From the sequence record MH359124: a stretch of 64,000 nt of DNA. The stretch is one strand, 5' to 3'. Below are positions 9,631-63,959 of the stretch, in pieces. A model generated the notes under the pieces. It was not told the origin of the DNA and did not search any database. It saw only the letters and a list, made by a program, of their open reading frames with translations. The DNA comes from Escherichia phage SF. Within the stretch, counting starts at the first letter, position 1. Every line of letters starts with the position of its first letter. Position numbers and translations under genes: made by a program.

Positions 9631-10080
9631 ATGGCCTACTCTGGTAAATGGGTCCCAAAAAATTTAAAAAAATACCGTGGAGACCATACCAAAATAACGT
9701 ATCGTTCAAACTGGGAAAAATTCTTTTTCGAATGGTTGGATAAAAATCCAGAAATTATTGCATGGGGTAGTGAAACAGCAGTAATTCCATATTTTTGTAA
9801 TGCTGAAGGTAAGAAACGTCGATACTATATGGACATATGGATGAAAGATGCATCAGGTCAAGAGTTCTTTGTAGAAATAAAACCAAAGAAAGAAACTCAG
9901 CCGCCTATTAAGCCTGTAAATCTTACGACCGCAGCAAAGAAACGTTATATGAACGAGATCTACGTGTGGTCTGTGAACTGTGATAAATGGAAAGCTGCTT
10001 CTGCTGTCGCAGAAAAGAGAAATATAAAATTTCGAGTTCTAACCGAAGATGGACTTAGGAAACTCGGATACAAGGGGTAA
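9631..10080 (+). CDS. 4: head completion protein gp4
   Basis: Start at internal ATG after GGAGGA ([18 protein letters not shown]); 149 aa vs T4 gp4 150 aa; position before gene 2. Confidence 0.8.
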
Positions 10081-14402: not shown

Positions 14403-14689
14403 TTCTTTATGCTAAAGTAAAATCTGTCGAGAATGGATATGAAAGCGATCAACGTGCAGCTAAAGCACTAGTCGATGACTATGGTATTTTGACTAATTTT
14501 GAAGTTGAAAAGGTTTACATCGACCGTTCGTCTTCACAGGTTAAATTGCTCTGTGAAGATGATAAATTTAACACAGTTAACTTTGATTTCTTTATTGAAA
14601 CAGAAAAAGGCCCTCTTGAATATGATATTTTCAAGAATCCTTTGAAATTACGTTGCATTGAATATAATTACATTAATATGGTACGGTGA
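14399..14689 (+). CDS. hypothetical protein
   Basis: 96 aa ORF, ATGA start/stop overlap with upstream gene. Confidence 0.55.
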   Translation: MILYAKVKSVENGYESDQRAAKALVDDYGILTNFEVEKVYIDRSSSQVKLLCEDDKFNTVNFDFFIETEKGPLEYDIFKNPLKLRCIEYNYINMVR

Positions 14690-15288: not shown

Positions 15289-15362
15289 GGCCCTGTAGCT
15301 CAACGGTTAGCAGCAGTCCCCTCATAAGGGAAAGGTTACCAGTTCGAATCTGGTCTGGGTCA
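15289..15362 (+). tRNA. tRNA with anticodon CAT (Met or lysidine-modified Ile)
   Basis: Hand fold: acceptor GGCCCTG/CTGGGTC (one mismatch, one GU), D-loop with GG, anticodon loop CTCATAA, T-arm ACCAG-TTCGAAT-CTGGT. Confidence 0.7.
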
Positions 15363-15368
15363 TATATT

Positions 15369-15445
<77 letters not shown>

Positions 15446-16664: not shown

Positions 16665-16691
16665 GCCCCTTCCTTACGGTTGGGGCTTTTT
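16665..16691 (+). terminator. rho-independent terminator GCCCC-TTCCTTACGGTT-GGGGC-TTTTT (repeat copy 2)
   Basis: Near-identical to hairpin at 16121 and 32092. Confidence 0.7.
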
Positions 16692-16804
16692 GGTATCTAG
16701 GCCTTTCCGGGAATCTCTAGGCATCATTTAGTTTATACCCTTTATAATAATATATTATCCTACCTTTTAATTGCCTCTCTCTGCCCTAGAATTCCCCGGA
16801 ACTT

Positions 16805-20953: not shown

Positions 20954-21910
20954 ATGATGTTAGTTATTGGTTCTCGTGCACTTCACTATCATGGACTTAT
21001 TGATTCTAATGCTATCAAAAATAGTGACTGGGACTTTATTGCAGACCAAGGTTCTTGGAATGCATTCAAAAATCAAATGATGGGTGTATATGTTCATCAA
21101 GATAACCCTGATGTCCAAGTTTTCAAATGCTTCCATAATGGACGCGAAACTCATTTTGAAGCATATATTGTTCCGGCAATCACTAATGTCCGTGAATTAG
21201 TCGGTGAACTCACTCCTGAAGATTTCACATCTTCTTACGACCTTTTAAAATACGCCAAGAAAAATTTGACCAAAGACCGTTTGAACGGGTTTTACTGGGC
21301 AACTCCTGAGATATGTCTTGCAATTAAGATGTCTCATCGTTTCAAGAAAAATAATCCATTCTTTTTAAAGACTATGAACCATATTCAGTATCTTCGTGGT
21401 AAAGGTGTTACACTGAACGACGAACTTACTGAAATTATGCTGAAACGCCAGAAAGAAACCTTGAACTATGCTCACCCAGTTCTTGACACTTCTAAAAGTG
21501 CGTTCTTTAAAGATGACATCTATACATATGACCATGATACTATTCATGAAGCCATTGCACTAACAGACCGCCCGGCTTATACATTTTACATGAAAGATGG
21601 TTCTGAAGTCATGACCTCACGCGAGAAGTTTGAATCATTACCAGAAATGGTAAAATTGGCTGGTGTATACGAAGAATCATGTGTACTAGCATTAGAACGT
21701 TCTCAGATTCCTAACGACTTTAAAATTAACCCTGAAGCCAGTTTTATGATGGCATTGGAAAAAGTCTGTACAAGCATCACCTCTGGTTGGTTCCGTGAGT
21801 ATGCCTGGGAAAACTATAGCAAAGTAGTAAGTATGTACCAAAGCTTAGGACATGATGATTACGTCAAACGTTTCAAACAAAATTTCCATATGGTAAAACC
21901 TTTCAAATAA
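20954..21910 (+). CDS. hypothetical protein, possible nucleotidyltransferase-fold N-terminus
   Basis: 318 aa; N-terminal LVIGSRALHYHG...SDWDF loosely resembles GS...DxD NTase motif. Confidence 0.55.
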   Translation: MMLVIGSRALHYHGLIDSNAIKNSDWDFIADQGSWNAFKNQMMGVYVHQDNPDVQVFKCFHNGRETHFEAYIVPAITNVRELVGELTPEDFTSSYDLLKYAKKNLTKDRLNGFYWATPEICLAIKMSHRFKKNNPFFLKTMNHIQYLRGKGVTLNDELTEIMLKRQKETLNYAHPVLDTSKSAFFKDDIYTYDHDTIHEAIALTDRPAYTFYMKDGSEVMTSREKFESLPEMVKLAGVYEESCVLALERSQIPNDFKINPEASFMMALEKVCTSITSGWFREYAWENYSKVVSMYQSLGHDDYVKRFKQNFHMVKPFK

Positions 21911-42719: not shown

Positions 42720-43193
42720 ATGTTATTATCAGGCGCAAAATACAAAGAAGAAAAACAAAAATTTTATGATGCACAGAATGGTAAGTGTCCTATTTGCCAC
42801 CGTGAATTAGACCCTGATGTTCAAGGTAACCATCTTGACCACGACCACGAATTAAACGGGCCAAAAGCAGGTAGAGTTCGTGGGTTACTCTGTAATCTGT
42901 GCAACGCAGCAGAAGGCCAAATGAAGCATAAGTTCAACCGTTCCGGTCTTAAAGGACGTGATGTCGACTACCTCGAATGGCTTGAAGCTCTTCTTGCTTA
43001 TTTGAAACAAGATTATTCTGATAATAATATCCATCCTAATTTTGTTCCAGACAAAACTAAAGAGTTCTCAAGACTAGGTAAAGAGGAAATGATGGCTGAG
43101 ATGCTTCAAAGAGGATTTGAATATAATGAATCTGATACCAAAACACAATTAATAGCTTCATTCAAAAAGCAGCTTAGAAAGAGTTTAAAATGA
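42720..43193 (+). CDS. 49: endonuclease VII (Holliday junction resolvase gp49)
   Basis: MLLSGAKYKEEKQKFYDAQNGKCPICHREL...; 157 aa; matches T4 gp49. Confidence 0.95.
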   Translation: MLLSGAKYKEEKQKFYDAQNGKCPICHRELDPDVQGNHLDHDHELNGPKAGRVRGLLCNLCNAAEGQMKHKFNRSGLKGRDVDYLEWLEALLAYLKQDYSDNNIHPNFVPDKTKEFSRLGKEEMMAEMLQRGFEYNESDTKTQLIASFKKQLRKSLK

Positions 43194-45007
43194 AAATTGA
43201 AAAAGAAATTGAAGGATTAATTCATAAAACTAATAAAGATCTTTTGAACGAGAATGCTAATAAAGATTCTCGTGTTTTTCCAACTCAACGGGACCTTATG
43301 GCTGGTATTGTGTCTAAGCACATTGCCAAAAATATGGTCCCGTCTTTTATTATGAAAGCACATGAAAGCGGAATTATCCATTTCCATGATATTGATTATT
43401 CCCCTGCACTTCCATTTACTAATTGCTGTTTAGTAGATTTAAAAGGAATGCTTGAAAACGGATTTAAGCTAGGTAACGCTCAAATTGAAACGCCTAAATC
43501 GATCGGTGTTGCTACTGCAATTATGGCACAAATTACTGCACAGGTTGCTTCTCATCAATATGGCGGAACGACTTTTGCGAATGTAGATAAAGTACTTTCT
43601 CCTTATGTTAAACGCACCTATGCAAAACATATTGAGGATGCAGAAAAATGGCAAATCGCTGATGCGTTGAATTATGCTCAATCCAAAACAGAAAAAGATG
43701 TCTATGACGCGTTCCAAGCTTATGAATATGAAGTAAATACTCTCTTTAGTTCAAACGGACAAACGCCTTTTGTAACAATTACATTTGGTACTGGAACTGA
43801 CTGGACTGAACGAATTATTCAGAAGGCAATTCTTAAAAACCGCATTAAAGGCCTTGGTCGTGATGGAATAACTCCTATTTTCCCTAAGCTTGTTATGTTC
43901 GTTGAAGAAGGCGTTAATCTTTATAAAGATGATCCAAACTATGATATTAAACAACTTGCGTTAGAATGTGCAAGCAAAAGAATGTATCCTGACATTATTT
44001 CGGTTAAGAATAATAAAGCTATTACCGGTTCTTCAGTTCCTGTTTCTCCAATGGGTTGCCGTAGTTTCTTGAGCGTATGGAAAGATTCGACTGGTAATGA
44101 AATTCTTGATGGACGTAATAATCTCGGTGTTGTAACACTGAATCTTCCTCGTATCGCATTAGATTCTTATATTGGAACACAGTTCAATGAACAGAAATTT
44201 ATTGAATTGTTCAATGAACGAATGGATTTGTGTTTTGAAGCATTGATGTGTAGAATTAGTTCTTTAAAGGGTGTTAAAGCGACTGTTGCTCCTATTCTTT
44301 ACCAAGAAGGTGCATTTGGGGTTCGTCTTAAACCTGACGATGATATAATTGAGTTATTTAAAAACGGTAGAAGTTCAGTGTCTTTAGGATACATTGGTAT
44401 TCACGAATTGAATATTCTTGTCGGTCGTGATATTGGACAAGAAATTTTGACTAAAATGAATGCTCGTCTTAAGCAGTGGACTGAAAGAACTGGATTTGCT
44501 TTTAGTTTATACTCTACTCCTGCTGAAAACCTTTGTTATCGCTTCTGTAAACTTGATACTGAAAAATATGGAAGTGTAAAGGATGTTACTGATAAAGGCT
44601 GGTACACTAATAGTTTCCATGTTTCAGTAGAAGAAAATATCACTCCGTTTGAAAAGATTTCTCGCGAAGCCCCATATCATTTCATTGCGACAGGCGGTCA
44701 CATTTCTTATGTTGAACTTCCTGATATGAAAAATAACTTAAAAGGTCTTGAGGCTGTCTGGGATTACGCTGCACAACATTTAGATTATTTTGGTGTTAAT
44801 ATGCCAGTAGATAAATGTTTTACATGTGGAAGTACACATGAAATGACTCCTACTGAAAACGGATTTGTTTGTTCTATTTGTGGAGAAACTGATCCTAAAA
44901 AGATGAACACCATAAGAAGAACATGCGGTTATCTTGGAAATCCGAACGAACGTGGATTTAATCTCGGCAAAAATAAAGAAATCATGCATAGGGTTAAACA
45001 CCAATGA
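43190..45007 (+). CDS. nrdD: anaerobic ribonucleoside-triphosphate reductase NrdD
   Basis: 605 aa as T4 NrdD; C-terminal CxxC...CxxC and glycyl radical motif RRTCGYLG; uninterrupted (no intron). Confidence 0.95.
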   Translation: MKIEKEIEGLIHKTNKDLLNENANKDSRVFPTQRDLMAGIVSKHIAKNMVPSFIMKAHESGIIHFHDIDYSPALPFTNCCLVDLKGMLENGFKLGNAQIETPKSIGVATAIMAQITAQVASHQYGGTTFANVDKVLSPYVKRTYAKHIEDAEKWQIADALNYAQSKTEKDVYDAFQAYEYEVNTLFSSNGQTPFVTITFGTGTDWTERIIQKAILKNRIKGLGRDGITPIFPKLVMFVEEGVNLYKDDPNYDIKQLALECASKRMYPDIISVKNNKAITGSSVPVSPMGCRSFLSVWKDSTGNEILDGRNNLGVVTLNLPRIALDSYIGTQFNEQKFIELFNERMDLCFEALMCRISSLKGVKATVAPILYQEGAFGVRLKPDDDIIELFKNGRSSVSLGYIGIHELNILVGRDIGQEILTKMNARLKQWTERTGFAFSLYSTPAENLCYRFCKLDTEKYGSVKDVTDKGWYTNSFHVSVEENITPFEKISREAPYHFIATGGHISYVELPDMKNNLKGLEAVWDYAAQHLDYFGVNMPVDKCFTCGSTHEMTPTENGFVCSICGETDPKKMNTIRRTCGYLGNPNERGFNLGKNKEIMHRVKHQ

Positions 45008-48570: not shown

Positions 48571-48836
48571 AATTAACTCGAATCAGTATAACTGAAGAAA
48601 AGCTGGGCGAATTTTATGTTGACGAATACATGAAAGTCACGTATTTTCCATTCGTTAAAGGTGTTGGTTTTTGGGAAACTCATGTATCTCAATTAAACGA
48701 AGGCGACTATAACGAAACACATGAGAACTTTTTAGATTTTCTTTATAATGCCGGTCTTACTGAGCTTTATATCGATATCCATGAGTTCAAACGTTTAATG
48801 GAAAAAGTGTTTCAGGCTTATTGTTTGCTCCGATAG
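48567..48836 (+). CDS. hypothetical protein
   Basis: 89 aa. Confidence 0.5.
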   Translation: MKLTRISITEEKLGEFYVDEYMKVTYFPFVKGVGFWETHVSQLNEGDYNETHENFLDFLYNAGLTELYIDIHEFKRLMEKVFQAYCLLR

Positions 48837-48839
48837 TAT

Positions 48840-48890
48840 CTCGTGCTTTAAGATAGGTCTCTAAATATTATGATATAATAGACCTATGAA
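48840..48890 (+). promoter_or_regulatory. promoter with stem-loop upstream of gene 55 (TATAAT between ATAGGTCT / AGACCTAT)
   Basis: gtgctttaagATAGGTCTctaaatattatgaTATAATAGACCTATgaa. Confidence 0.5.
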
Positions 48891-48908
48891 TTGAGCTAAG
48901 AGGTACTT

Positions 48909-49466
48909 ATGACTGAACAAAAACCTAAAAATAACTATGTGAATAATAAAGAGCTTCTCGCCGCTATAATCGAGTGGAAAAAGGAGCTCTTAAATAATAA
49001 AGACCCAAACAAAATTATTCGTCAGAATGATACCATCGGTTTAGCAATTATGCTTATCGCCGAAGGCCTATCCAAACGTTTCAACTTTTCAGGATATACC
49101 CAATCTTGGAAGCAGGAGATGATTGCAGATGGGATTGAAGCCTCTATTAAGGGACTTCATAATTTCGACGAAACCAAGTACAATAACCCACATGCATACA
49201 TAACTCGAGCTTGTTTTAATGCTTTTGTCCAACGTATCAAAAAAGAACGTAAGGAAGTTGCAAAGAAATATAGTTACTTCGTTCATAACGTCTACGACAG
49301 TCATGACGATGATATGGTAGCGTTGGTAGATGAAACGTTTATTCAAGACATCTACGATAAAATGACGCATTATGAAGAATCCGCTTATAAAGCTCCTGGG
49401 GCTGAAAAGAAGGAAGTTGTTAGCGATTCGCCTAGTTTGGATTTTTTATATGAGGATGACAATTGA
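48909..49466 (+). CDS. 55: late-transcription sigma factor gp55
   Basis: 185 aa; [49 protein letters not shown]; matches T4 gp55. Confidence 0.95.
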
Positions 49467-49665
49467 CATCTCTAACTACTTAGAAGAACCTTTTGACGAA
49501 GCAATCCCTTATTTGGTAAAACTGTTGGGTCGTGAATTTAAAATTAATTTTGACATCGACCCTTTGAACCCACATGACGTGTCATTTTCGATAAATGGGA
49601 CTCCGGTTGAGTATGAGTTCTGTATTGAAGAGGATGGACGTTTTTATTTTAATTTAATGAGATAA
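49456..49665 (+). CDS. hypothetical protein
   Basis: Internal ATG start [13 protein letters not shown]. Confidence 0.5.
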
Positions 49666-49666
49666 T

Positions 49667-49990
49667 ATGACTACCGAGATTATTGAAAATAAAGAAGCGG
49701 AAGATGCAGTAGCTAAAATGCTACAAGAAATCCAAAAGAAAAATGAAGCTGAAGCACGTAAAAAATCCGAAAAGATTCTTAAAAAGAATCGTTTTGAACT
49801 AAACCGTCTTTATGCTCATGCTCAAGAAGCAGCAATTCAAAACAACTTCGAAGCTTATGAATATGCTATTAAGAAATCTCGGGATATTCTACGACAACCA
49901 TATAATGACAAGTTAATTAAAATCCAGTGGGTTACTACTCGTCAGGCTATTGAGGACATCATTAATGGCGCTAGTTCAAACAAAGTTTAA
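49667..49990 (+). CDS. hypothetical protein
   Basis: 107 aa. Confidence 0.5.
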   Translation: MTTEIIENKEAEDAVAKMLQEIQKKNEAEARKKSEKILKKNRFELNRLYAHAQEAAIQNNFEAYEYAIKKSRDILRQPYNDKLIKIQWVTTRQAIEDIINGASSNKV

Positions 49991-50171
49991 ACGTCTTAAT
50001 CTGAACGCAGGATTCACCCTTAAATTGGGAGGTCCTCTTTGTGTTAAAATTTCCGAAAAGGAATATCACGACGGTTCTATTACAGAAATTTGTCCGCCTA
50101 TTGTAAAGGCAGACCCAAAACAACTCGTGTGGGTTGATTCATTTCAAGTTAAGAAATGGTGGAAACGATGA
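49965..50171 (+). CDS. hypothetical protein
   Basis: MALVQTKFKRLNL. Confidence 0.4.
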   Translation: MALVQTKFKRLNLNAGFTLKLGGPLCVKISEKEYHDGSITEICPPIVKADPKQLVWVDSFQVKKWWKR

Positions 50172-50210
50172 GAGAAATCGATTTAGGTATTTTCTGAGAG
50201 GTGATTATGC

Positions 50211-50384
50211 ATGACGAACGACCCGACCTCTGAAAATTTCGATAAAATCCGTAAAGGCAAAGCAGAAAGAATGAGACGTTTTAAAGAGTCTTATGATAAA
50301 GCTAAAGCCGAAGGAACTATTACATACAAGCCCATTCGATTTAAAAGTTCAAATGAGCCTCTGTACGGTGTACTATGTGGATAG
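50211..50384 (+). CDS. small basic protein (57 aa)
   Basis: ATG after GAGGTGATT; MTNDPTSENFDKIRKGKAERMRRFK; followed by terminator. Confidence 0.45.
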   Translation: MTNDPTSENFDKIRKGKAERMRRFKESYDKAKAEGTITYKPIRFKSSNEPLYGVLCG

Positions 50385-50410
50385 GAACTCTTCGGAGTTC
50401 CTTTTTTTTT
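50383..50410 (+). terminator. rho-independent terminator AGGAACTC-TTCG-GAGTTCCT-T9
   Basis: 8 bp stem, tetraloop, nine Ts. Confidence 0.8.
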
Positions 50411-50456
50411 GCTTTATAAACGGATGATAGAATGAATTAACTAATGAGGAAATAAT

Positions 50457-51476
50457 ATGAAAATTTTGCACTTAGGCGACTTCCATATCGGAGTCAAACA
50501 AGACGACCCATGGGTTCAAGATATTCAACGTGATGGTATTCGTCAAGCAATTGAATACTCTAAGAAACACGGGATTAAAACTTGGATTCAATACGGTGAC
50601 TGGTTTGACGTCCGTAAAGCAATAACACATCGTACAATGGAATTCAATCGTGAAATCGTTGATATGATTTCTAAAGCAGGCATTCACGTTCATGTCACGA
50701 TAGGAAACCATGACATGGCGTTTAAGAATACAATAACACCTAACACTGTTTCCGAATTGTTAACTCAATTTGAAAACTTTACTATTTACGAGCATCCAAC
50801 TACTGTAGATTTTGACGGATGTCTGATTGATATCGTTCCATGGATGTGTGAAGAAAATACAGGTGAAATCTTAGAGCACATCAAGACTTCTTCCGCAGCG
50901 TATTGTGTTGGGCACTGGGAACTGAATGGCTTTTATTTCTATAAAGGAATGAAGTCTCATGGGCTTGAACCTGATTTCTTAAAGACTTATAAACAAGTCT
51001 GGTCCGGCCACTTCCACACAATCTCTGAAGCTGCTAACGTCAAATATATTGGGACACCATGGACCCTTACTGCAGGTGATGAGAACGACCCGCGCGGATT
51101 CTGGGTATTTGACACTGATGTTGAACGTATGGAATTTATTCCTAATGAAACAACATGGCATCGACGAATCACTTATCCGTTTAAAGGCAAAATCAATTAT
51201 TCTGATTATACTAATATAGCCTTACGTGTTATAGTATCAGAAATTGATTCAGAGTTGACTAAGTTTGAATCTGAACTTGAAAAAGTAGTTCACTCTCTTC
51301 GTATGGTTTCTAAAGTTGATAACAGTGTTGAATCTGATGACGACCAGGAAATCGAGATTAAATCACTTCAAGATATCATTAAAGAATATATTGACGCGAT
51401 TCCAGATATCTCAGACGAAGACAGAGAAGTGCTGGTCAAATATTCCAACGAACTTTATATTGAGGCAACACAATGA
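50457..51476 (+). CDS. 47: recombination endonuclease subunit gp47 (Mre11-like)
   Basis: 339 aa; MKILHLGDFHIG and GNHD phosphoesterase motifs; matches T4 gp47. Confidence 0.95.
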   Translation: MKILHLGDFHIGVKQDDPWVQDIQRDGIRQAIEYSKKHGIKTWIQYGDWFDVRKAITHRTMEFNREIVDMISKAGIHVHVTIGNHDMAFKNTITPNTVSELLTQFENFTIYEHPTTVDFDGCLIDIVPWMCEENTGEILEHIKTSSAAYCVGHWELNGFYFYKGMKSHGLEPDFLKTYKQVWSGHFHTISEAANVKYIGTPWTLTAGDENDPRGFWVFDTDVERMEFIPNETTWHRRITYPFKGKINYSDYTNIALRVIVSEIDSELTKFESELEKVVHSLRMVSKVDNSVESDDDQEIEIKSLQDIIKEYIDAIPDISDEDREVLVKYSNELYIEATQ

Positions 51477-59849: not shown

Positions 59850-60485
59850 ATGAAAACTACTCCTATTACTATCGCTATTGACGCAATCATAAAACAAGCT
59901 TCTTCTTTGGCCGCTATGGCCAAAGTAATTAGTCAAAACCCTGCTCGTTATAATGCTATTTTAGAAACTCTTCGACGCCCGGGACTTAGTAATTATGAAA
60001 GCCGAGTAATTATTACAGGTGTTGGTAAGAACGCTAATATCGCAACTAAAGCTTCTGAGACTTTTGCTTCACTCGGTATACCGAGTATGTACTTGAACAC
60101 TGGGCATTATTCTCACGGTGATGCAGGATTCATTGCGCCTAATGATGTGTTGATTCATATTAGTCGTTCTGGTAAAACTGAAGAAATGATAGGTGTGGCT
60201 AAGCATCTTAAAATGATTCGTCCGAACGTCAAACAGATTCTGTTGCATTGTAACCCAGACATTCCGCAAGAAAATGAAGCCCTTTTTGATTACTCTTTCT
60301 GTACAGGCATCGCTGTAGAAGTTGACGAGAACTCTTTAGCTCCGACTATGTCCACTACATTGTTGTTAGCGCTTATCGATACGTTTGCTATCAACCTTTC
60401 GTCTGAACGTGGATTTACCTCTAATGACTTCCTTAAGTTCCACCCTGGTGGTGCACTAGGTGCCATGTTACGAGGCGAACAATGA
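59850..60485 (+). CDS. SIS-domain sugar-phosphate isomerase (GmhA/KdsD-like)
   Basis: ITGVGKNANIATKASETFASLGIPSMYLNTGHYSHGD matches SIS phosphosugar-binding fold; 211 aa, no CBS domains. Confidence 0.7.
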   Translation: MKTTPITIAIDAIIKQASSLAAMAKVISQNPARYNAILETLRRPGLSNYESRVIITGVGKNANIATKASETFASLGIPSMYLNTGHYSHGDAGFIAPNDVLIHISRSGKTEEMIGVAKHLKMIRPNVKQILLHCNPDIPQENEALFDYSFCTGIAVEVDENSLAPTMSTTLLLALIDTFAINLSSERGFTSNDFLKFHPGGALGAMLRGEQ

Positions 60486-60625
60486 AAGCAATAACAATAG
60501 GACTTTTACTATTGATGCTTGTCATGACTATCTACTGGAGCTTAACGGCTCCAGTAATGGTCCCGACTCTTATAATCGGATGGATTATGATTGGACTACA
60601 AGCAAAGTATGAATGCTTTAACTAG
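60482..60625 (+). CDS. small hydrophobic membrane peptide (47 aa)
   Basis: ATGA-coupled; MKAITIGLLLLMLVMTIYWSLTAPVMVPTLIIGWIMIGL; below track cutoff. Confidence 0.4.
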   Translation: MKAITIGLLLLMLVMTIYWSLTAPVMVPTLIIGWIMIGLQAKYECFN

Positions 60626-60666: not shown

Positions 60667-62352
60667 ATGAAAAAAGCTGTTATTCTTGGTGCTGGACTGG
60701 CAACTCGTTTGTATCCAATAACGCATCATATTCCTAAGGTGCTTGTTAACTATAAACAAGACACTATTCTGAGCAATTTGTATACAATCTATTCTGACCT
60801 TGGCGCAGATGAAATTATTGTAGTAGTTCATTCAAAATTTGCTGAAACCGTTCGAGCTTATTGTGAGCAAGAAGGGTTCAATGTGACTATTCGTACAGTT
60901 GATGAAGCGTATGGTTCTGCTTATGCTCTTGCTAAATTACACAAAGATTTAGACGGCCATAATGTAATTGTTAACTGGTGTGATATTATTCCCGATTTTG
61001 GTTCATGGTCTTGGAATGTTAACGCAATCTATGTTAAGGGTGACGAATGTCGATATAATTTCGACGGTGAAAATATCACTAACGTAGGTTCAACAGGTGG
61101 TAATGTTGTAGGAATTTATCAGTTCAAAGACTGGGAATTCTATATGGGTTCTACTGATGAGGAAATTCATGAATACTGCAAAGGACGCGATTTCGTAGAA
61201 TTCCTTTACGGCAGTGCATTCAATAAATCAGAGCTTATGAATCTAATTGATTTAGGTGATATGCCTAAACTTGAAAAAGCTCATGAAGTTCGTGAACTTA
61301 ATCGTAGTTTTAATGCAGTTGAAATTGGTGAAGAAACTGTAACTAAATTCGCATTAACCGAACAGGGTCGAGCTCTTCAGAAAGATGAGATTTCGTGGTA
61401 TCTTAAAGTGAAATCAGATTCAGTTCCTCAGTTAGTTTCTGTTAATGAAAATAACTTTGAAATGGAACGCATTAAAGGTAAGCCGGCATTTGAATATATT
61501 AAATCCAAATCAAGTCTTGCTCGACCACAAATTGTTGATGCAATCTTAGATGCACTGAAATTCAGCACAGACACTTATTTTGTAAGTCCTGAAACTGTTC
61601 GTCGTGATTTCACTAAAGAATTCTATACTAAAGTTATTGATCGTTGCGAAAGTATTCAACCATTGATTGATTCATTTGGTAAAATCACACATGTGAACTA
61701 CACTAAGATCGGACGTCTGAAGCCAATGTTGAAACAAGCTTTAGAACACCTTATTCGTTATCATAACCGTTCTCAGGGACAGTACTCTGTTATTCATGGC
61801 GACCCGAACTTCAGTAATACTATGATTACTGATAATGGTGAAGTCAAGTTTATCGACCCTCGTGGATATTTTGGCGAAACCAAGATTTACGGACCAAAAT
61901 TGTATGATGAAGCTAAAGTGCTTTACGCCGTTTCAGGTTATGATGAATTCAACGCTAATCCGACCTGGGGGCAGTTTACTATTGATGAAACAACTTGTAA
62001 TGTGACTATTAACATCAATCCATTAGTTTACAAATATGGAAAGATGAGTTCGTTTAACGAGTATCATCATTTGGCAGTGGCAATTATCTGGATTGCATTA
62101 GGTGGTTATTTCAAGAATAATCCACTTAAAGCGGTAGCCGCATATTATAAAGGTATGGAACTTCTGACTAAGCAATTACGTAACATGGGCCGTGTACTTC
62201 AGGACGGCTCTATTAGTTACGACGTAGCAGAACCTGTAACGGCTACTCTGATTACAAAAAATCCTGGTAAATGGGTACTAACTGATAAAGAAACTGGTGT
62301 TTCTTATCGTCCAATCGGTGGCGATATCACTCATCAATGGGAACGAATCTAA
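60667..62352 (+). CDS. bifunctional sugar-1-phosphate nucleotidyltransferase / APH-type sugar kinase
   Basis: N-terminal AVILGAGLATRLYPIT...PKVLV (RmlA/GlmU-type NTase signature); C-terminal VIHGDPNFSNTMIT and IDPRGYFG (aminoglycoside/choline/anomeric kinase motifs); 561 aa. Confidence 0.7.
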   Translation: MKKAVILGAGLATRLYPITHHIPKVLVNYKQDTILSNLYTIYSDLGADEIIVVVHSKFAETVRAYCEQEGFNVTIRTVDEAYGSAYALAKLHKDLDGHNVIVNWCDIIPDFGSWSWNVNAIYVKGDECRYNFDGENITNVGSTGGNVVGIYQFKDWEFYMGSTDEEIHEYCKGRDFVEFLYGSAFNKSELMNLIDLGDMPKLEKAHEVRELNRSFNAVEIGEETVTKFALTEQGRALQKDEISWYLKVKSDSVPQLVSVNENNFEMERIKGKPAFEYIKSKSSLARPQIVDAILDALKFSTDTYFVSPETVRRDFTKEFYTKVIDRCESIQPLIDSFGKITHVNYTKIGRLKPMLKQALEHLIRYHNRSQGQYSVIHGDPNFSNTMITDNGEVKFIDPRGYFGETKIYGPKLYDEAKVLYAVSGYDEFNANPTWGQFTIDETTCNVTININPLVYKYGKMSSFNEYHHLAVAIIWIALGGYFKNNPLKAVAAYYKGMELLTKQLRNMGRVLQDGSISYDVAEPVTATLITKNPGKWVLTDKETGVSYRPIGGDITHQWERI

Positions 62353-62738
62353 TGCACCGTGTAGAAAACATGCTTAATCTTTGTTTTGATGTCGATGATT
62401 GTATAACAGAGTGGAATAACAATCGTGATTACGTGAACTTCAAACCAGACGTCGAAATGGTGTCTGCCATTAATGCCCTGTATGATGCAGGGCATACCAT
62501 AACGCTTTACACTGCTCGCGGTATGAAGTCAGTCGGTCCTGGTCGTATAGCAATTGACATTCTCCCAAGTCTGATTCAGAACTTGTCAAACATTGGATTG
62601 AAGTACCATAATTTGCTAACACATAAACCAGTATATGATTGGATTATCGACGACAAAGCTATGCGTCCTGACGAATTCAAAGCTCTTATGAATAAAGGCG
62701 AATTCGAAACATTTAAATCATATAAACCGAATCTATAA
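62352..62738 (+). CDS. HAD-superfamily phosphatase-like protein
   Basis: Motif I LCFDVDDCIT (atypical), motif IV DWIIDDK; start may be 62337. Confidence 0.55.
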   Translation: MHRVENMLNLCFDVDDCITEWNNNRDYVNFKPDVEMVSAINALYDAGHTITLYTARGMKSVGPGRIAIDILPSLIQNLSNIGLKYHNLLTHKPVYDWIIDDKAMRPDEFKALMNKGEFETFKSYKPNL

Positions 62739-62798: not shown

Positions 62799-63959
62799 AT
62801 GAATACTTTTAAAATCGGAACGAATTTTGATTTAGCTCTTCTTGATAAAATCGTAGAGCTCAATAAAACTTATCCTAATAGCTTGATAAACGAAGTATAC
62901 GGCTCTACAAGAGAAATGGCTTTTGTAGCAGCCAGACCTGATTTTAGGCTTCCTGACGTTGACAAAAAGATGTTAGAAGATTACGTTAAACGTTGTAACG
63001 AATTGGGTATTTGCTTTAACTATACACTCAACACGATAAATCCTGGTTCAAAAAGAGAACTAGTTGAGTGGAAGAAGAAAGCTATTCAGGATTATGTTCA
63101 GTATCTTTGGTCAATAGGTGTATGGCGTATTACTATCGCTAACCCTGTTGTTATGGAAATTGTTCGTGAAGTCAATAAAGACATTGAGATTGAAGTTTCA
63201 ACAATTCTACATGTCGATGCTGTAACTCAAATCAAATACTTGCATGACCAATATAATATCAAAAAGGTCTGCTGTGGAATTCATAAGAACCGTTCAGTTT
63301 CTTTCCTGAAGCGTGCAGCAGAGTTTTGTAATAAGAACAATATAATATTTGAAGTTCTCGTAAATGAATTCTGCTCTAATGCTGGTAAAGGGTATACAAC
63401 ACATTGTAGCTATCGTGACTCTTGCTATATTTTCCATAGCACCGATGTTACAGTAGATGATGCCAAATCCTTAAATGGATATCCAATGCAACACTGTATT
63501 AAAGCTCGTGATACAGATCCATTTAACTGGTTGAGAACTCGTTTTGTTCGTCCTCAAGATTTGAAACTTTATAATGATATTGGTATCACTCAATTTAAAG
63601 TTTCGGGACGTACAGGTAGCACAGACTACATTTTGAAAGTTCTTGAAGCTTATGCTTCTGAAAAGTTTGAAGGTAATTTGTTAGAACTGTGGAAGCCTTT
63701 AGAGACCATTTTCACTCTTGAAAATGAGACCGAGTTTTCACATACGGTAAATATTGAAACCTCTTTGTTAGATGGCTTTTTAGAAAAAAGGTGGTTCAAA
63801 CATCCGGATTTCGATTGTGCTAATGAAATCTGCGGGACGACGTGTACATATTGTGAAAGATATTATAAACGTCAGTTATCTAAAAATGGGTTATCAGAAA
63901 ACTCTATATCTATTATTGATATAACTAACTCTGATGACGCTTTGAGGTACCCAGAATGA
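62799..63959 (+). CDS. U32-family (peptidase U32 / RlhA-TrhP-UbiU-like) protein with CxxxCxxC cluster
   Basis: EVLVNEFCSNAGKGYTTHCSYRDSC resembles U32 signature EVFAFGSLC..GRCYLS; FKVSGRTGS resembles U32 KIEGR; C-terminal CANEICGTTCTYC. Confidence 0.55.
   Translation: MNTFKIGTNFDLALLDKIVELNKTYPNSLINEVYGSTREMAFVAARPDFRLPDVDKKMLEDYVKRCNELGICFNYTLNTINPGSKRELVEWKKKAIQDYVQYLWSIGVWRITIANPVVMEIVREVNKDIEIEVSTILHVDAVTQIKYLHDQYNIKKVCCGIHKNRSVSFLKRAAEFCNKNNIIFEVLVNEFCSNAGKGYTTHCSYRDSCYIFHSTDVTVDDAKSLNGYPMQHCIKARDTDPFNWLRTRFVRPQDLKLYNDIGITQFKVSGRTGSTDYILKVLEAYASEKFEGNLLELWKPLETIFTLENETEFSHTVNIETSLLDGFLEKRWFKHPDFDCANEICGTTCTYCERYYKRQLSKNGLSENSISIIDITNSDDALRYPE

Follow-up and report, generated by a model that had tools for sequence, protein, structure and literature searches.

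An alpha-gt-less interval between genes 55 and 47, and arabinose-pathway genes after gene 43, in an RB69-like T-even phage

The RB69-like phages of the genus Mosigvirus are known to lack both alpha-gt and beta-gt (here a-gt and b-gt; PMC6024577, PMC13326640, PMC13390438), and published LC-MS and NMR analyses of their DNA have found arabinose, not glucose (PMC13326640, PMC13390438). The modification of RB69 was first reported in 2018 as arabinosyl-hydroxymethylcytosine (ara-hmC; PMC6024577), an assignment which two later papers call wrong, NMR, mass spectrometry and 18O2 labelling having led them to an ether link to 5-hydroxycytosine (PMC13326640, PMC13390438). Mono- and di-arabinosylated 5-hydroxycytosine have been described in the DNA of RB69, HY126 and Mosigvirus NP (PMC13326640, PMC13390438), and an m/z 376 nucleoside species described for it (PMC13326640) corresponds to 5-hydroxy-dC plus one pentose, 14 Da lighter than hydroxymethyl-dC with one pentose would be. 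In T4 the a-gt gene lies in the interval between genes 55 and 47, and here we explore how this interval, and the cytosine chemistry to which its content is linked, compares in a stretch of 64,000 nucleotides, which we call the window.

The source of the window is a Mosigvirus, that is, an RB69-like T-even phage. Compared with Escherichia phage HY126 it shows 99.0% identity at the locus and 95-97% when all of the window is aligned, the encoded proteins being 97-100% identical to their HY126 counterparts and the order of genes after gene 43 being the same. From the described Mosigvirus system (RB69, HY126, NP) the window does not differ detectably, both being without a-gt and b-gt. The missing alpha-gt is thus a correct but ordinary observation, explained by membership of the RB69 group, for which both the absence of the two genes and an arabinose-based cytosine modification have already been published, and of which the window represents one more member.

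Genes 55 and 47 are separated by 990 bp in the window and by 3152 bp in T4 (NC_000866 36448-39599), and when both strands are scanned the largest ORF in the interval measures 107 aa. This bears out the sequence-only reading of the locus, which had claimed only four small ORFs and a strong terminator, with nothing of glycosyltransferase size. Since an interval of about 1 kb would in any case be too small for a gene of 350-400 aa, the meaningful observation is the shortness of the interval itself. The four small ORFs are real genes, matching their T4 counterparts with E values from 1e-14 to 2e-32 and belonging to four PHROG families (Table 1). The a-gt.5 homologue starts within the last codons of gene 55 (the sequence-only reading took the second ATG, at 49456), the a-gt.3 and a-gt.4 homologues overlap by 26 nt, and of the four genes a-gt.4 is conserved most widely, occurring even in the most distant loci (L030-L032). 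The a-gt.x names are purely positional and uninformative on glucosylation, the four genes being retained under any modification chemistry. Searches for repeats, Rfam families and tRNAs in and near the interval returned nothing relevant.

Table 1. Features of the 55-47 interval and of the region after gene 43 (window coordinates)
Feature	Coordinates	Strand	Evidence and remarks
gene 55, late sigma factor	48909..49466	+	91% identity to T4 gp55, 100% to HY126
a-gt.5 homologue, 71 aa	49450..49665	+	47% identity to T4 a-gt.5, E 1e-14; Pfam DUF5491 E 6e-13; phrog_1169
a-gt.4 homologue, 107 aa	49667..49990	+	58% identity to T4 a-gt.4; Pfam DUF2654 E 1e-27
a-gt.3 homologue, 68 aa	49965..50171	+	69% identity to T4 a-gt.3, E 8e-29; phrog_1648 E 1e-33
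a-gt.2 homologue, 57 aa	50211..50384	+	76% identity to T4 a-gt.2; Pfam DUF5486 E 5e-28
intrinsic-terminator-like hairpin, 8-bp stem, UUCG loop, then T9	50383..50411	+	hairpin itself 50383-50402
MotA-box-like TTTTGCTTTA, 11 nt, then TAGAAT	50407..50433	+	possible middle promoter of genes 47 and 46
gene 47, SbcD-like nuclease subunit	50457..51476	+	75% identity to T4 gp47; Pfam Metallophos
arabinose-5-phosphate isomerase (SIS domain)	59850..60485	+	Pfam SIS; NCBIfam KpsF/KdsD E 2e-32, 7e-31; 99% identity to HY126
bifunctional sugar kinase / sugar-1-phosphate nucleotidyltransferase	60667..62352	+	Pfam NTP_transferase and kinase-like matches; NCBIfam; PDB 1JYK; 97% identity to HY126
HAD-type phosphatase	62352..62738	+	NCBIfam TIGR01689 E 3e-13; phrog_1238; 99% identity to HY126
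peptidase-U32-family protein, 386 aa	62799..63959	+	Pfam Peptidase_U32 E 6e-11; alignments to RlhA, TrhP, UbiU; RB69 gp50 counterpart

The interval shares with that of T4 its flanking genes, the four small genes, which keep both their order and their overlaps, and, 3' of a-gt.2, the UUCG hairpin and the GCTTTATA motif. Collinearity of the window with T4 runs to position 50420, hairpin and TTGCTTTATAAA included, and picks up again at the ATG of gene 47. What T4 alone has is an additional 2.2 kb, lying between a-gt.2 and gene 47 and comprising the homing endonuclease gene mobB, a-gt, whose product is a GT-B protein of 400 aa, and 47.1; this segment is absent from the window without remnant. In tblastn searches of the window with T4 a-gt, b-gt, mobB and 47.1 there was no significant match (best E 0.3-0.55), the best value for a-gt being 0.55, while b-gt gave no match at all at E<=10. 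T4 also has a second copy of the hairpin and promoter unit, whereas the window has one, and the window's terminator carries a long U run which the T4 copy after a-gt.2 does not.

The hairpin has a predicted energy of -12 kcal/mol (z = -2.3 against shuffled sequences), and its G+C-rich stem with the adjoining U9 run is what defines an intrinsic, or rho-independent, terminator by sequence; the terminator is therefore real as a sequence feature, and termination at it is putative. Most related phages have an equivalent UUCG hairpin 3' of a-gt.2. The strict MotA-box-like pattern occurs on the + strand just twice in the 64-kb window, and the site after a-gt.2 is kept in related genera upstream of whichever gene comes next, be it a-gt, 47.1 or 47; its function as a promoter is putative. 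In this lineage, then, the 55-47 interval holds only the conserved end of the transcription unit of gene 55, with a-gt.5, a-gt.4, a-gt.3 and a-gt.2 packed tightly or overlapping; the UUCG hairpin and U9 run would close this unit, and from the middle-promoter-like site transcription would start anew towards genes 47 and 46.

The junction between a-gt.2 and gene 47 is a slot whose content varies by lineage: it may hold a-gt, a homing endonuclease, 47.1 or another small gene, or be empty. In Tequatrovirus, the Mineola-like Klebsiella phages and Erwinia phage Cronus, a-gt sits in this same slot, and in T4 and the Mineola-like phages the stem-loop and promoter unit is duplicated on each side of the a-gt cassette. 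A stem-loop and promoter unit bounding an indel in a plastic region is reminiscent of the PeSL cassettes (PMC2839356, PMC4122927), although these were defined with early promoters, whereas the promoter-like part in the window is a MotA-box middle-promoter motif. By this likeness the hairpin and promoter unit could have a role in recombination.

The content of the slot is linked to the genes for cytosine modification. We compared 26 related IMG/VR loci, a phylogenetically non-independent sample in which 8 have a-gt and 18 do not. A gene-42-like gene accompanies a-gt in all 8 loci that have it and is found in none of the 18 others, while the isomerase or AfhE is present in 12 of these 18 and in none of the 8; the corresponding Fisher p values, 6e-7 for a-gt against gene 42 and 0.002 for a-gt against isomerase/AfhE, treat as independent loci that are related by descent. 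Across the 26 loci, a-gt occupies the slot only where the lineage has a gene-42-type hydroxymethylase, and never together with arabinose genes.

The window falls on the arabinose side of this division. After gene 43, where T4 has imm.1, imm, 42 and b-gt, it has instead the isomerase, the nucleotidyltransferase/kinase, the phosphatase and the U32 protein of Table 1, all four 97-99.5% identical to those of HY126. These arabinose-pathway genes are without counterpart in T4. The isomerase occupies the position of T4 imm.1, imm and 42; the kinase/nucleotidyltransferase is the counterpart of HY126 AfhE and RB69 gp52:53, and the phosphatase that of HY126 AfhF and RB69 gp51. The AfhE-type function is given as that of an arabinose-phosphate kinase and UDP-arabinose pyrophosphorylase, and an activity has been reported for the HY126 phosphatase as well (PMC13326640). 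No match to a gene-42-type dCMP hydroxymethylase was found in the window, its position being filled by the isomerase and AfhE-like genes. The window ends about 40 nt past the U32 gene, so that the hydroxylase, kinase and transferase genes of the system fall outside it. Directly after the U32 gene HY126, mar009P5 and 17 of 17 related loci have a ThyA-like gene, whose product has been reported to be a 5-hydroxy-dCMP synthase (PMC13326640, PMC13390438) and, with 25% identity, is a distant homologue of T4 gp42. By analogy the phage would make 5-hydroxy-dCMP and build it into DNA, where the 5-hydroxycytosine would then be arabinosylated from UDP-arabinofuranose. Its four initial genes are those right after gene 43; as placed from relatives, the ThyA-like hydroxylase would follow just past the window end, and the two arabinosyltransferases would lie there and in the stretch from rIIA to gene 39.

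The sequence-only reading had proposed a whole-genome search for GT-B fold glycosyltransferases. Such a search would be positive, judging from close relatives: a 366-aa GT4-like GT-B protein, the protein of PDB 9IQZ/9IR0, is encoded in phages such as HY126 between rIIA and gene 39, outside the window, and a second putative transferase of 299 aa, likewise outside the window, adjoins the ThyA-like gene. The assignment of the latter as a transferase comes from published structure models (PMC13326640, PMC13390438), and Pfam, NCBIfam and PHROG place it in no family at sequence level. These proteins are assigned to arabinosyl transfer and are not alpha-gt orthologues (BLASTP finds no pairwise similarity to T4 a-gt, E 4.8); for both reasons their presence does not refute the interpretation.

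Pfam and NCBIfam, blind to both the 366-aa protein of solved structure and the 299-aa putative transferase, are poor detectors of glycosyltransferases, and Pfam-negative ORFs of the window could therefore formally be divergent glycosyltransferases. At a length of at least 250 aa the only such ORFs are the T4-conserved NrdC.3 and NrdC.6 homologues. A 318-aa ORF without T4 counterpart (20954-21910) was set aside, as it belongs to Pfam DUF7275/DUF7277, a family spread across unrelated phages; a single-sequence AlphaFold2 model of it (mean pLDDT 36) was unusable for fold assignment. The U32 protein, the sole ORF of glycosyltransferase size in the modification cluster of the window, belongs to the U32 family and is not a glycosyltransferase. 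Nothing useful was matched in PDB sequence searches, for which the queries were the 299-aa protein, the U32 protein and two further ORFs. As for annotation, a keyword reading of the HY126 record finds no product named glycosyltransferase, NrdC.x proteins are mislabelled there as thioredoxin and a 59-aa ORF as glycogen branching enzyme; the lesson is that keyword and Pfam searches overlook the real glycosyltransferases of these phages.

Taking together the a-gt-less interval, its conserved tail and the genes after gene 43, we consider it very probable that the window comes from a Mosigvirus with arabinosyl-5-hydroxycytosine in place of glucosyl-hydroxymethylcytosine. That T4-type glucosylation has been retained with alpha-gt relocated elsewhere is extremely unlikely. 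Of the genome of about 168 kb the window does cover no more than 64 kb, and close relatives do have GT-B enzymes elsewhere, but in the complete genome of HY126, 95-99% identical, T4 a-gt and b-gt reach best tblastn E values of just 0.076 and 4.9, respectively, so that, in agreement with the sequence-only reading, no alpha-gt homologue was found either there or in the window; the dissimilarity of the HY126 GT-B protein to a-gt, the arabinose-pathway genes in the gene-42 position and the arabinose, not glucose, of Mosigvirus DNA all argue in the same direction. The idea that this sequence alone has recently lost the gene, or was misassembled, has next to nothing in its favour beyond the location of the junction at a repeated hairpin and promoter unit, where a deletion could occur; given that the identical 990-bp arrangement is present in about 145 independently sequenced phages (95-99% identity) and in two IMG/VR contigs, and that the slot is empty or otherwise filled in other genera too, we regard it as vanishingly improbable.

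The arabinosyl-5-hydroxycytosine reading also has to be weighed against other states of the cytosine. Some pseudo-T-even phages have unmodified cytosine DNA, for which no sugar transferase would be needed, and the a-gt-less loci L030-L032 and the VR7-like L017-L020 have neither gene 42 nor arabinose genes in the sequence examined. For the present phage such a state is highly unlikely, considering the four intact and highly conserved arabinose-pathway genes in the window, the dCTPase, ThyA-like hydroxylase and transferases encoded by its relatives, and the published chemistry of the genus (PMC13326640, PMC13390438). Sequence by itself does not separate arabinosyl-5-hydroxycytosine from arabinosyl-hydroxymethylcytosine, the base of the 2018 report (PMC6024577), which the distant relationship of the ThyA-like gene to gp42 could be taken to favour; it is the later NMR, mass spectrometry and 18O2 labelling that favour the 5-hydroxycytosine ether (PMC13326640, PMC13390438) and leave the hydroxymethyl form very unlikely. 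From the gene content of the window and the published chemistry of its relatives we infer that the phage contains no glucosyl-hydroxymethylcytosine, and the earlier claim that its DNA modification is not T4-type glucosylation is supported by both.

One member of the cluster raises a further question. The U32 protein is its most conserved member (82-99% identity across genera), its gene always adjoins the ThyA-like gene in related loci, and it resembles RlhA and TrhP, the prephenate-dependent pyrimidine C5-hydroxylases of E. coli, in its U32 domain, an FK(I/V)xGR..Y motif and counterparts of a Glu/Cys/Cys triad. This triad is essential in U32 proteins of the RlhA/TrhP type (PMC6599085). In the phage protein it corresponds to E185, C192 and C209, which are invariant across 18 phage homologues and pair with E161/C169/C176 of RlhA in an hhalign comparison of shallow profiles (E 0.0011, probability 20%). 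The phage protein differs from RlhA and TrhP in being just 17-22% identical to them, in a 10-residue insertion within the motif and in an extra C-terminal CX4CX3CX2C cluster, and it would act on a deoxycytidine nucleotide or on DNA, where they act on rRNA or tRNA. In several genera a chorismate mutase gene, translationally coupled, lies 3' of the U32 gene, and a phage DAHP synthase shows the same distribution over phage groups and host genera as the U32 gene. A 79-aa ORF after the U32 gene in Mosigvirus was considered as a diverged chorismate mutase and rejected (no Pfam match; hhalign probability 0.3%). All phages with the U32 protein infect facultative anaerobes, and the arabinosylating phages of Acinetobacter, a strict aerobe, do not have its gene.

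From these likenesses we tentatively suggest, as a possibility that we hold to be somewhat doubtful, that the U32 protein (RB69 gp50) might hydroxylate position 5 of cytosine, in a deoxycytidine nucleotide or in DNA, by a reaction that depends on prephenate and needs no O2. It would act in parallel to the ThyA-like 5-hydroxy-dCMP synthase, which depends on O2 and flavin, much as TrhP and TrhO provide dual routes to 5-hydroxyuridine in tRNA, and with it gut phages would be able to form 5-hydroxycytosine under anaerobic conditions. We found no discussion of such a role in the literature searched, and it may have been published earlier.

If true, this role would explain how a base modification requiring O2 is possible when the host is anaerobic, and would give the U32 hydroxylase family a function directed at DNA. 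The loss of alpha-gt may then be just the outward sign of a cytosine chemistry that has been exchanged completely, and a part of the replacement pathway may be undescribed. The content of the slot between a-gt.2 and gene 47 provides a quick genomic marker of the type of cytosine modification, which in turn predicts the sensitivity of these phages to restriction, CRISPR and type IV systems.

The sequence-only reading had placed just four small ORFs and a strong terminator, and no ORF of glycosyltransferase size, between gene 55 (late sigma factor) and gene 47 (SbcD-like nuclease subunit), and this observation is right in all its details. On the plus strand of this segment of a T4-like phage genome, nrdD and nrdG come first, then the 55.x genes and gene 55, then the four small genes, and after them 47, 46, 45, 44, 62, regA and 43. 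The small genes match T4 a-gt.5, a-gt.4, a-gt.3 and a-gt.2 (E 1e-14 to 2e-32), named after the alpha-glucosyltransferase gene a-gt. All four were assigned to PHROG families without known function, and three are covered by the Pfam families DUF5491, DUF2654 and DUF5486. The largest ORF in the interval on either strand has 107 aa, and the predicted terminator is a hairpin directly 3' of a-gt.2 (8-bp stem, UUCG loop; -12 kcal/mol) with a run of nine T behind it. Because the interval spans only 1 kb, the lack of a glycosyltransferase-sized ORF is nearly forced, and the informative observation is rather the short distance between genes 55 and 47, 990 bp as against 3152 bp in T4.

Coordinates of the features discussed, in the window unless a locus is named
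Feature	Position	Strand	Remark
gene 55	48909-49466	+	91% identity to T4 gp55
a-gt.5 homolog	49450-49665	+	47% identity to T4
a-gt.4 homolog	49667-49990	+	58% identity to T4
a-gt.3 homolog	49965-50171	+	69% identity to T4
a-gt.2 homolog	50211-50384	+	76% identity to T4
gene 47	50457-51476	+	75% identity to T4 gene 47 product
hairpin/promoter unit	50383-50433
hairpin/promoter units, T4 (L003)	16678-16735, 14583-14630
hairpin/promoter units, locus L019	8662-8737, 9929-10003
arabinose-5-phosphate isomerase	59850-60485		directly after gene 43
47-aa ORF	60482-60625		between isomerase and nucleotidyltransferase/kinase genes
sugar-1-phosphate nucleotidyltransferase + kinase-like fusion	60667-62352		561 aa
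HAD phosphatase	62352-62738
peptidase-U32-family protein	62799-63959		RB69 gp50
U32 association, locus L058	6992-8502
U32 association, locus L059	6983-8394
U32 association, HY126 (L004)	48681-49673

In T4 the interval contains a-gt.5, a-gt.4, a-gt.3, a-gt.2, mobB, a-gt and 47.1. Collinearity of the window with T4 extends from gene 55 through a-gt.2, the hairpin and the motif TTGCTTTATAAA to window position 50420 and is regained at the gene 47 ATG, while no remnant of mobB, a-gt or 47.1 was detected in the window (tblastn best E 0.35, 0.55 and 0.31, respectively). TTTTGCTTTA overlaps the T run and is followed after 11 nt by TAGAAT; this strict MotA-box plus -10 pattern occurs just twice on the plus strand of the 64-kb window. 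A unit of this type, comprising a UUCG hairpin, a T run, GCTTTATA, about 12 nt and TAnAAT, stands on either side of the T4 a-gt cassette, and a similar unit is found at both ends of the cassette in Mineola-like Klebsiella phages, whereas the window has a single copy, the 3' half of which resembles the T4 copy located after a-gt. The unit is reminiscent of the PeSLs, composite terminator/promoter elements for which a role in mediating indels has been proposed in T4-type phages (PMC2839356, PMC4122927), except that its promoter motif is of the middle rather than the early type. The hairpin/promoter units may have served as cassette boundaries in the gain or loss of a-gt. The T run itself, lying between the hairpin and the MotA-like box (50403-50411), has nine T in the window and six in two otherwise near-identical IMG/VR contigs (L008 and L037, ~9951-9956), a homopolymer length polymorphism at the terminator/promoter junction.

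Other features of the T4 genome also differ. The window nrdD (43190-45007) is a single uninterrupted ORF of 605 aa with neither the group I intron nor the I-TevII of T4 nrdD; mobB, which occupies the 55-47 slot in T4, gave no tblastn match in the window, and in the comparison, which took in the 55-47, nrdG-nrdD, tRNA and gene 5 regions, window ORFs of at least 140 aa have no matches in the parts of T4 that hold mobC, mobD, segB and segC. Two tRNA genes, Met-CAT and Arg-TCT, are present (15289-15445), compared with eight tRNAs and two small stable RNAs in T4 and with a third tRNA (Asn) in this region of HY126.

Escherichia phage HY126 (PP658200.1) is the best match over the locus (99.0%), its counterparts of the locus proteins being 98-100% identical, and the arrangement is common to about 145 records at 95-99% identity, all RB69-like and of the genus Mosigvirus. 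Across the whole window identity to HY126 varies by segment from 80 to 99% (mostly 95-97%), and over the final 22 kb the top records reach 97.2%. The contents of 31 IMG/VR loci around gp47 homologs were tabulated. Eight have a-gt between a-gt.2 or a-gt.3 and gene 47, a set that includes Tequatrovirus, Mineola-like Klebsiella phages and Erwinia phage Cronus; all eight carry a gene-42-like (dCMP hydroxymethylase) gene after gene 43, and none carries an isomerase gene or an AfhE-like gene, AfhE being the bifunctional sugar kinase/sugar-1-phosphate nucleotidyltransferase of HY126. Conversely, gene 42 is found in 0 of 18 a-gt-negative loci, 12 of which have the isomerase and/or AfhE-like gene (Fisher p 6e-7 and 0.002, respectively, although the loci are related and hence do not represent independent events). 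Some T4-like lineages (L017, L018 and L020, VR25-, VR7- and VR26-like, and L030-L032) lack a-gt at the slot and have no gene-42-like or arabinose genes within 10 kb after gene 47. In a-gt-negative lineages the slot either is empty or contains 47.1 alone, a 110-aa ORF or an HNH homing endonuclease. Loci with and without a-gt alike retain the four small a-gt.x genes, and even the most distant ones still have a-gt.4. These genes are named for their position only, and what they do does not depend on glucosylation.

Neither T4 a-gt nor the beta-glucosyltransferase gene b-gt found a match in the window, and the same search of the complete HY126 genome recovered neither b-gt (best E 4.9) nor the a-gt homolog elsewhere that would contradict the sequence-only reading (best E 0.076). 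Window ORFs of at least 140 aa on the coding strands were compared with the syntenic part of T4, and those without a T4 counterpart or known function were scanned against Pfam, NCBIfam and PHROGs; no recognisable glycosyltransferase emerged, a weak negative because the same libraries yield no family match for a GT4-like 366-aa protein encoded by HY126 between rIIA and gene 39. The latter is identical to PDB 9IQZ/9IR0, entitled 'Glycosyltransferase subfamily 4-like N-terminal domain-containing protein', and its homolog, RB69 ORF003c, was proposed as the arabinosyltransferase in 2018 (PMC6024577) and is currently assigned as the second arabinosyltransferase (PMC13326640, PMC13390438). Given its location and its lack of pairwise similarity to T4 a-gt (BLASTP E 4.8), the GT-B enzymes of these phages lie outside the window and are not a-gt orthologs, so that a genome-wide search would recover the GT-B fold in a close relative, but not an alpha-glucosyltransferase. 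The Pfam-negative window ORFs of at least 250 aa are homologs of NrdC.3 and NrdC.6, both present in T4, and the sole non-T4 ORF of this size (20954-21910, 318 aa) carries DUF7275 and DUF7277, belongs to a family represented in 732 phage records from unrelated groups (including Aeromonas, Pseudomonas, Gordonia, Streptomyces and jumbo phages) and gave an unusable single-sequence structure model (pLDDT 36).

The HY126 record names no product glycosyltransferase despite this solved structure, and evidently mislabels NrdC.x proteins as thioredoxin, a 54-aa ORF as molybdenum ABC transporter and a 59-aa ORF as glycogen branching enzyme, so that searching such records by keyword is misleading. A 216-aa 'hypothetical protein' beyond the window (L006:28-678, HY126) gives a full-length Pfam match to AdfA (anti-DarT factor A; E 4e-121).

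In the place of T4 imm.1, imm, 42 and b-gt, directly following gene 43, the window carries arabinose-pathway genes that have no T4 homologs. The rest of the cluster, seen in HY126, mar009P5 and 17 related loci, consists of a small ORF, the ThyA-like gene, genes for a putative transferase of 299 aa and for a kinase, and then uvsX. The 47-aa ORF of the cluster keeps its position in HY126, Serratia phage LC53 and Klebsiella phage KLB31, where the annotation labels it a transmembrane peptide. The DNA of RB69 and Mosigvirus NP contains mono- and di-arabinosylated 5-hydroxycytosine (PMC13326640, PMC13390438); the ThyA-like enzyme forms 5-hydroxy-dCMP with O2, and the HY126 counterparts of the fusion protein and phosphatase produce UDP-arabinose (PMC13326640). 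Together with the published absence of alpha-gt and beta-gt from RB69-like phages (PMC6024577, PMC13326640, PMC13390438), the cluster supports the interpretation that the modification is not T4-type glucosylation; both this and the absence of alpha-gt are already known for Mosigvirus.

One further member of the cluster, the U32-family protein, is listed only as a 'sugar or heterocycle reductase' without discussion (PMC13326640). The E. coli U32 proteins RlhA and TrhP are needed to hydroxylate rRNA cytidine and tRNA uridine, respectively, at C5 in a reaction that depends on prephenate but not on O2, and their essential residues comprise one Glu and two Cys (PMC6599085). Aligned with RlhA, TrhP, UbiU and UbiV, the phage protein keeps the Glu (E185), the first Cys (C192) and the FK(I/V)xGR..Y motif. 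A profile-profile alignment (E 0.0011), of just 20% probability because the profiles are shallow, also matches C209 (DSCYIFHS) to the second Cys (GQCYISHA), beyond an insertion of 10 residues. E185 and all 13 Cys are invariant among 18 phage homologs. Within the cluster this protein shows the highest conservation (82-99%), and its gene always lies between the phosphatase and ThyA-like genes. A gene for a type II chorismate mutase, an enzyme that makes prephenate, overlaps the stop codon of the U32 gene in Serratia phage LC53, Klebsiella phage KLB31 and seven IMG/VR loci (Pfam CM_2 E 2e-11 in LC53, 1e-9 in KLB31). The corresponding place in Mosigviruses is taken by an unrelated 79-aa ORF. Mosigviruses and the same other genera also encode a genuine DAHP synthase (Pfam E 5e-74), with which the pathway leading to prephenate begins; the 211 phage records that contain it have nearly the same host-genus profile as the 220 with the U32 gene. 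The U32 gene is missing from all 57 Acinetobacter phage records that carry an AfhE-like gene, Acinetobacter being a strict aerobe. 5-Hydroxy-dCMP is made by a known route that requires O2, so a second, anaerobic route would be coherent as a hypothesis, and sequence and gene context suggest that the U32 protein may provide such a prephenate-dependent route to 5-hydroxycytosine. The idea may have been treated in the literature before; the association of the U32, chorismate mutase and DAHP synthase genes is a lead deserving separate study.
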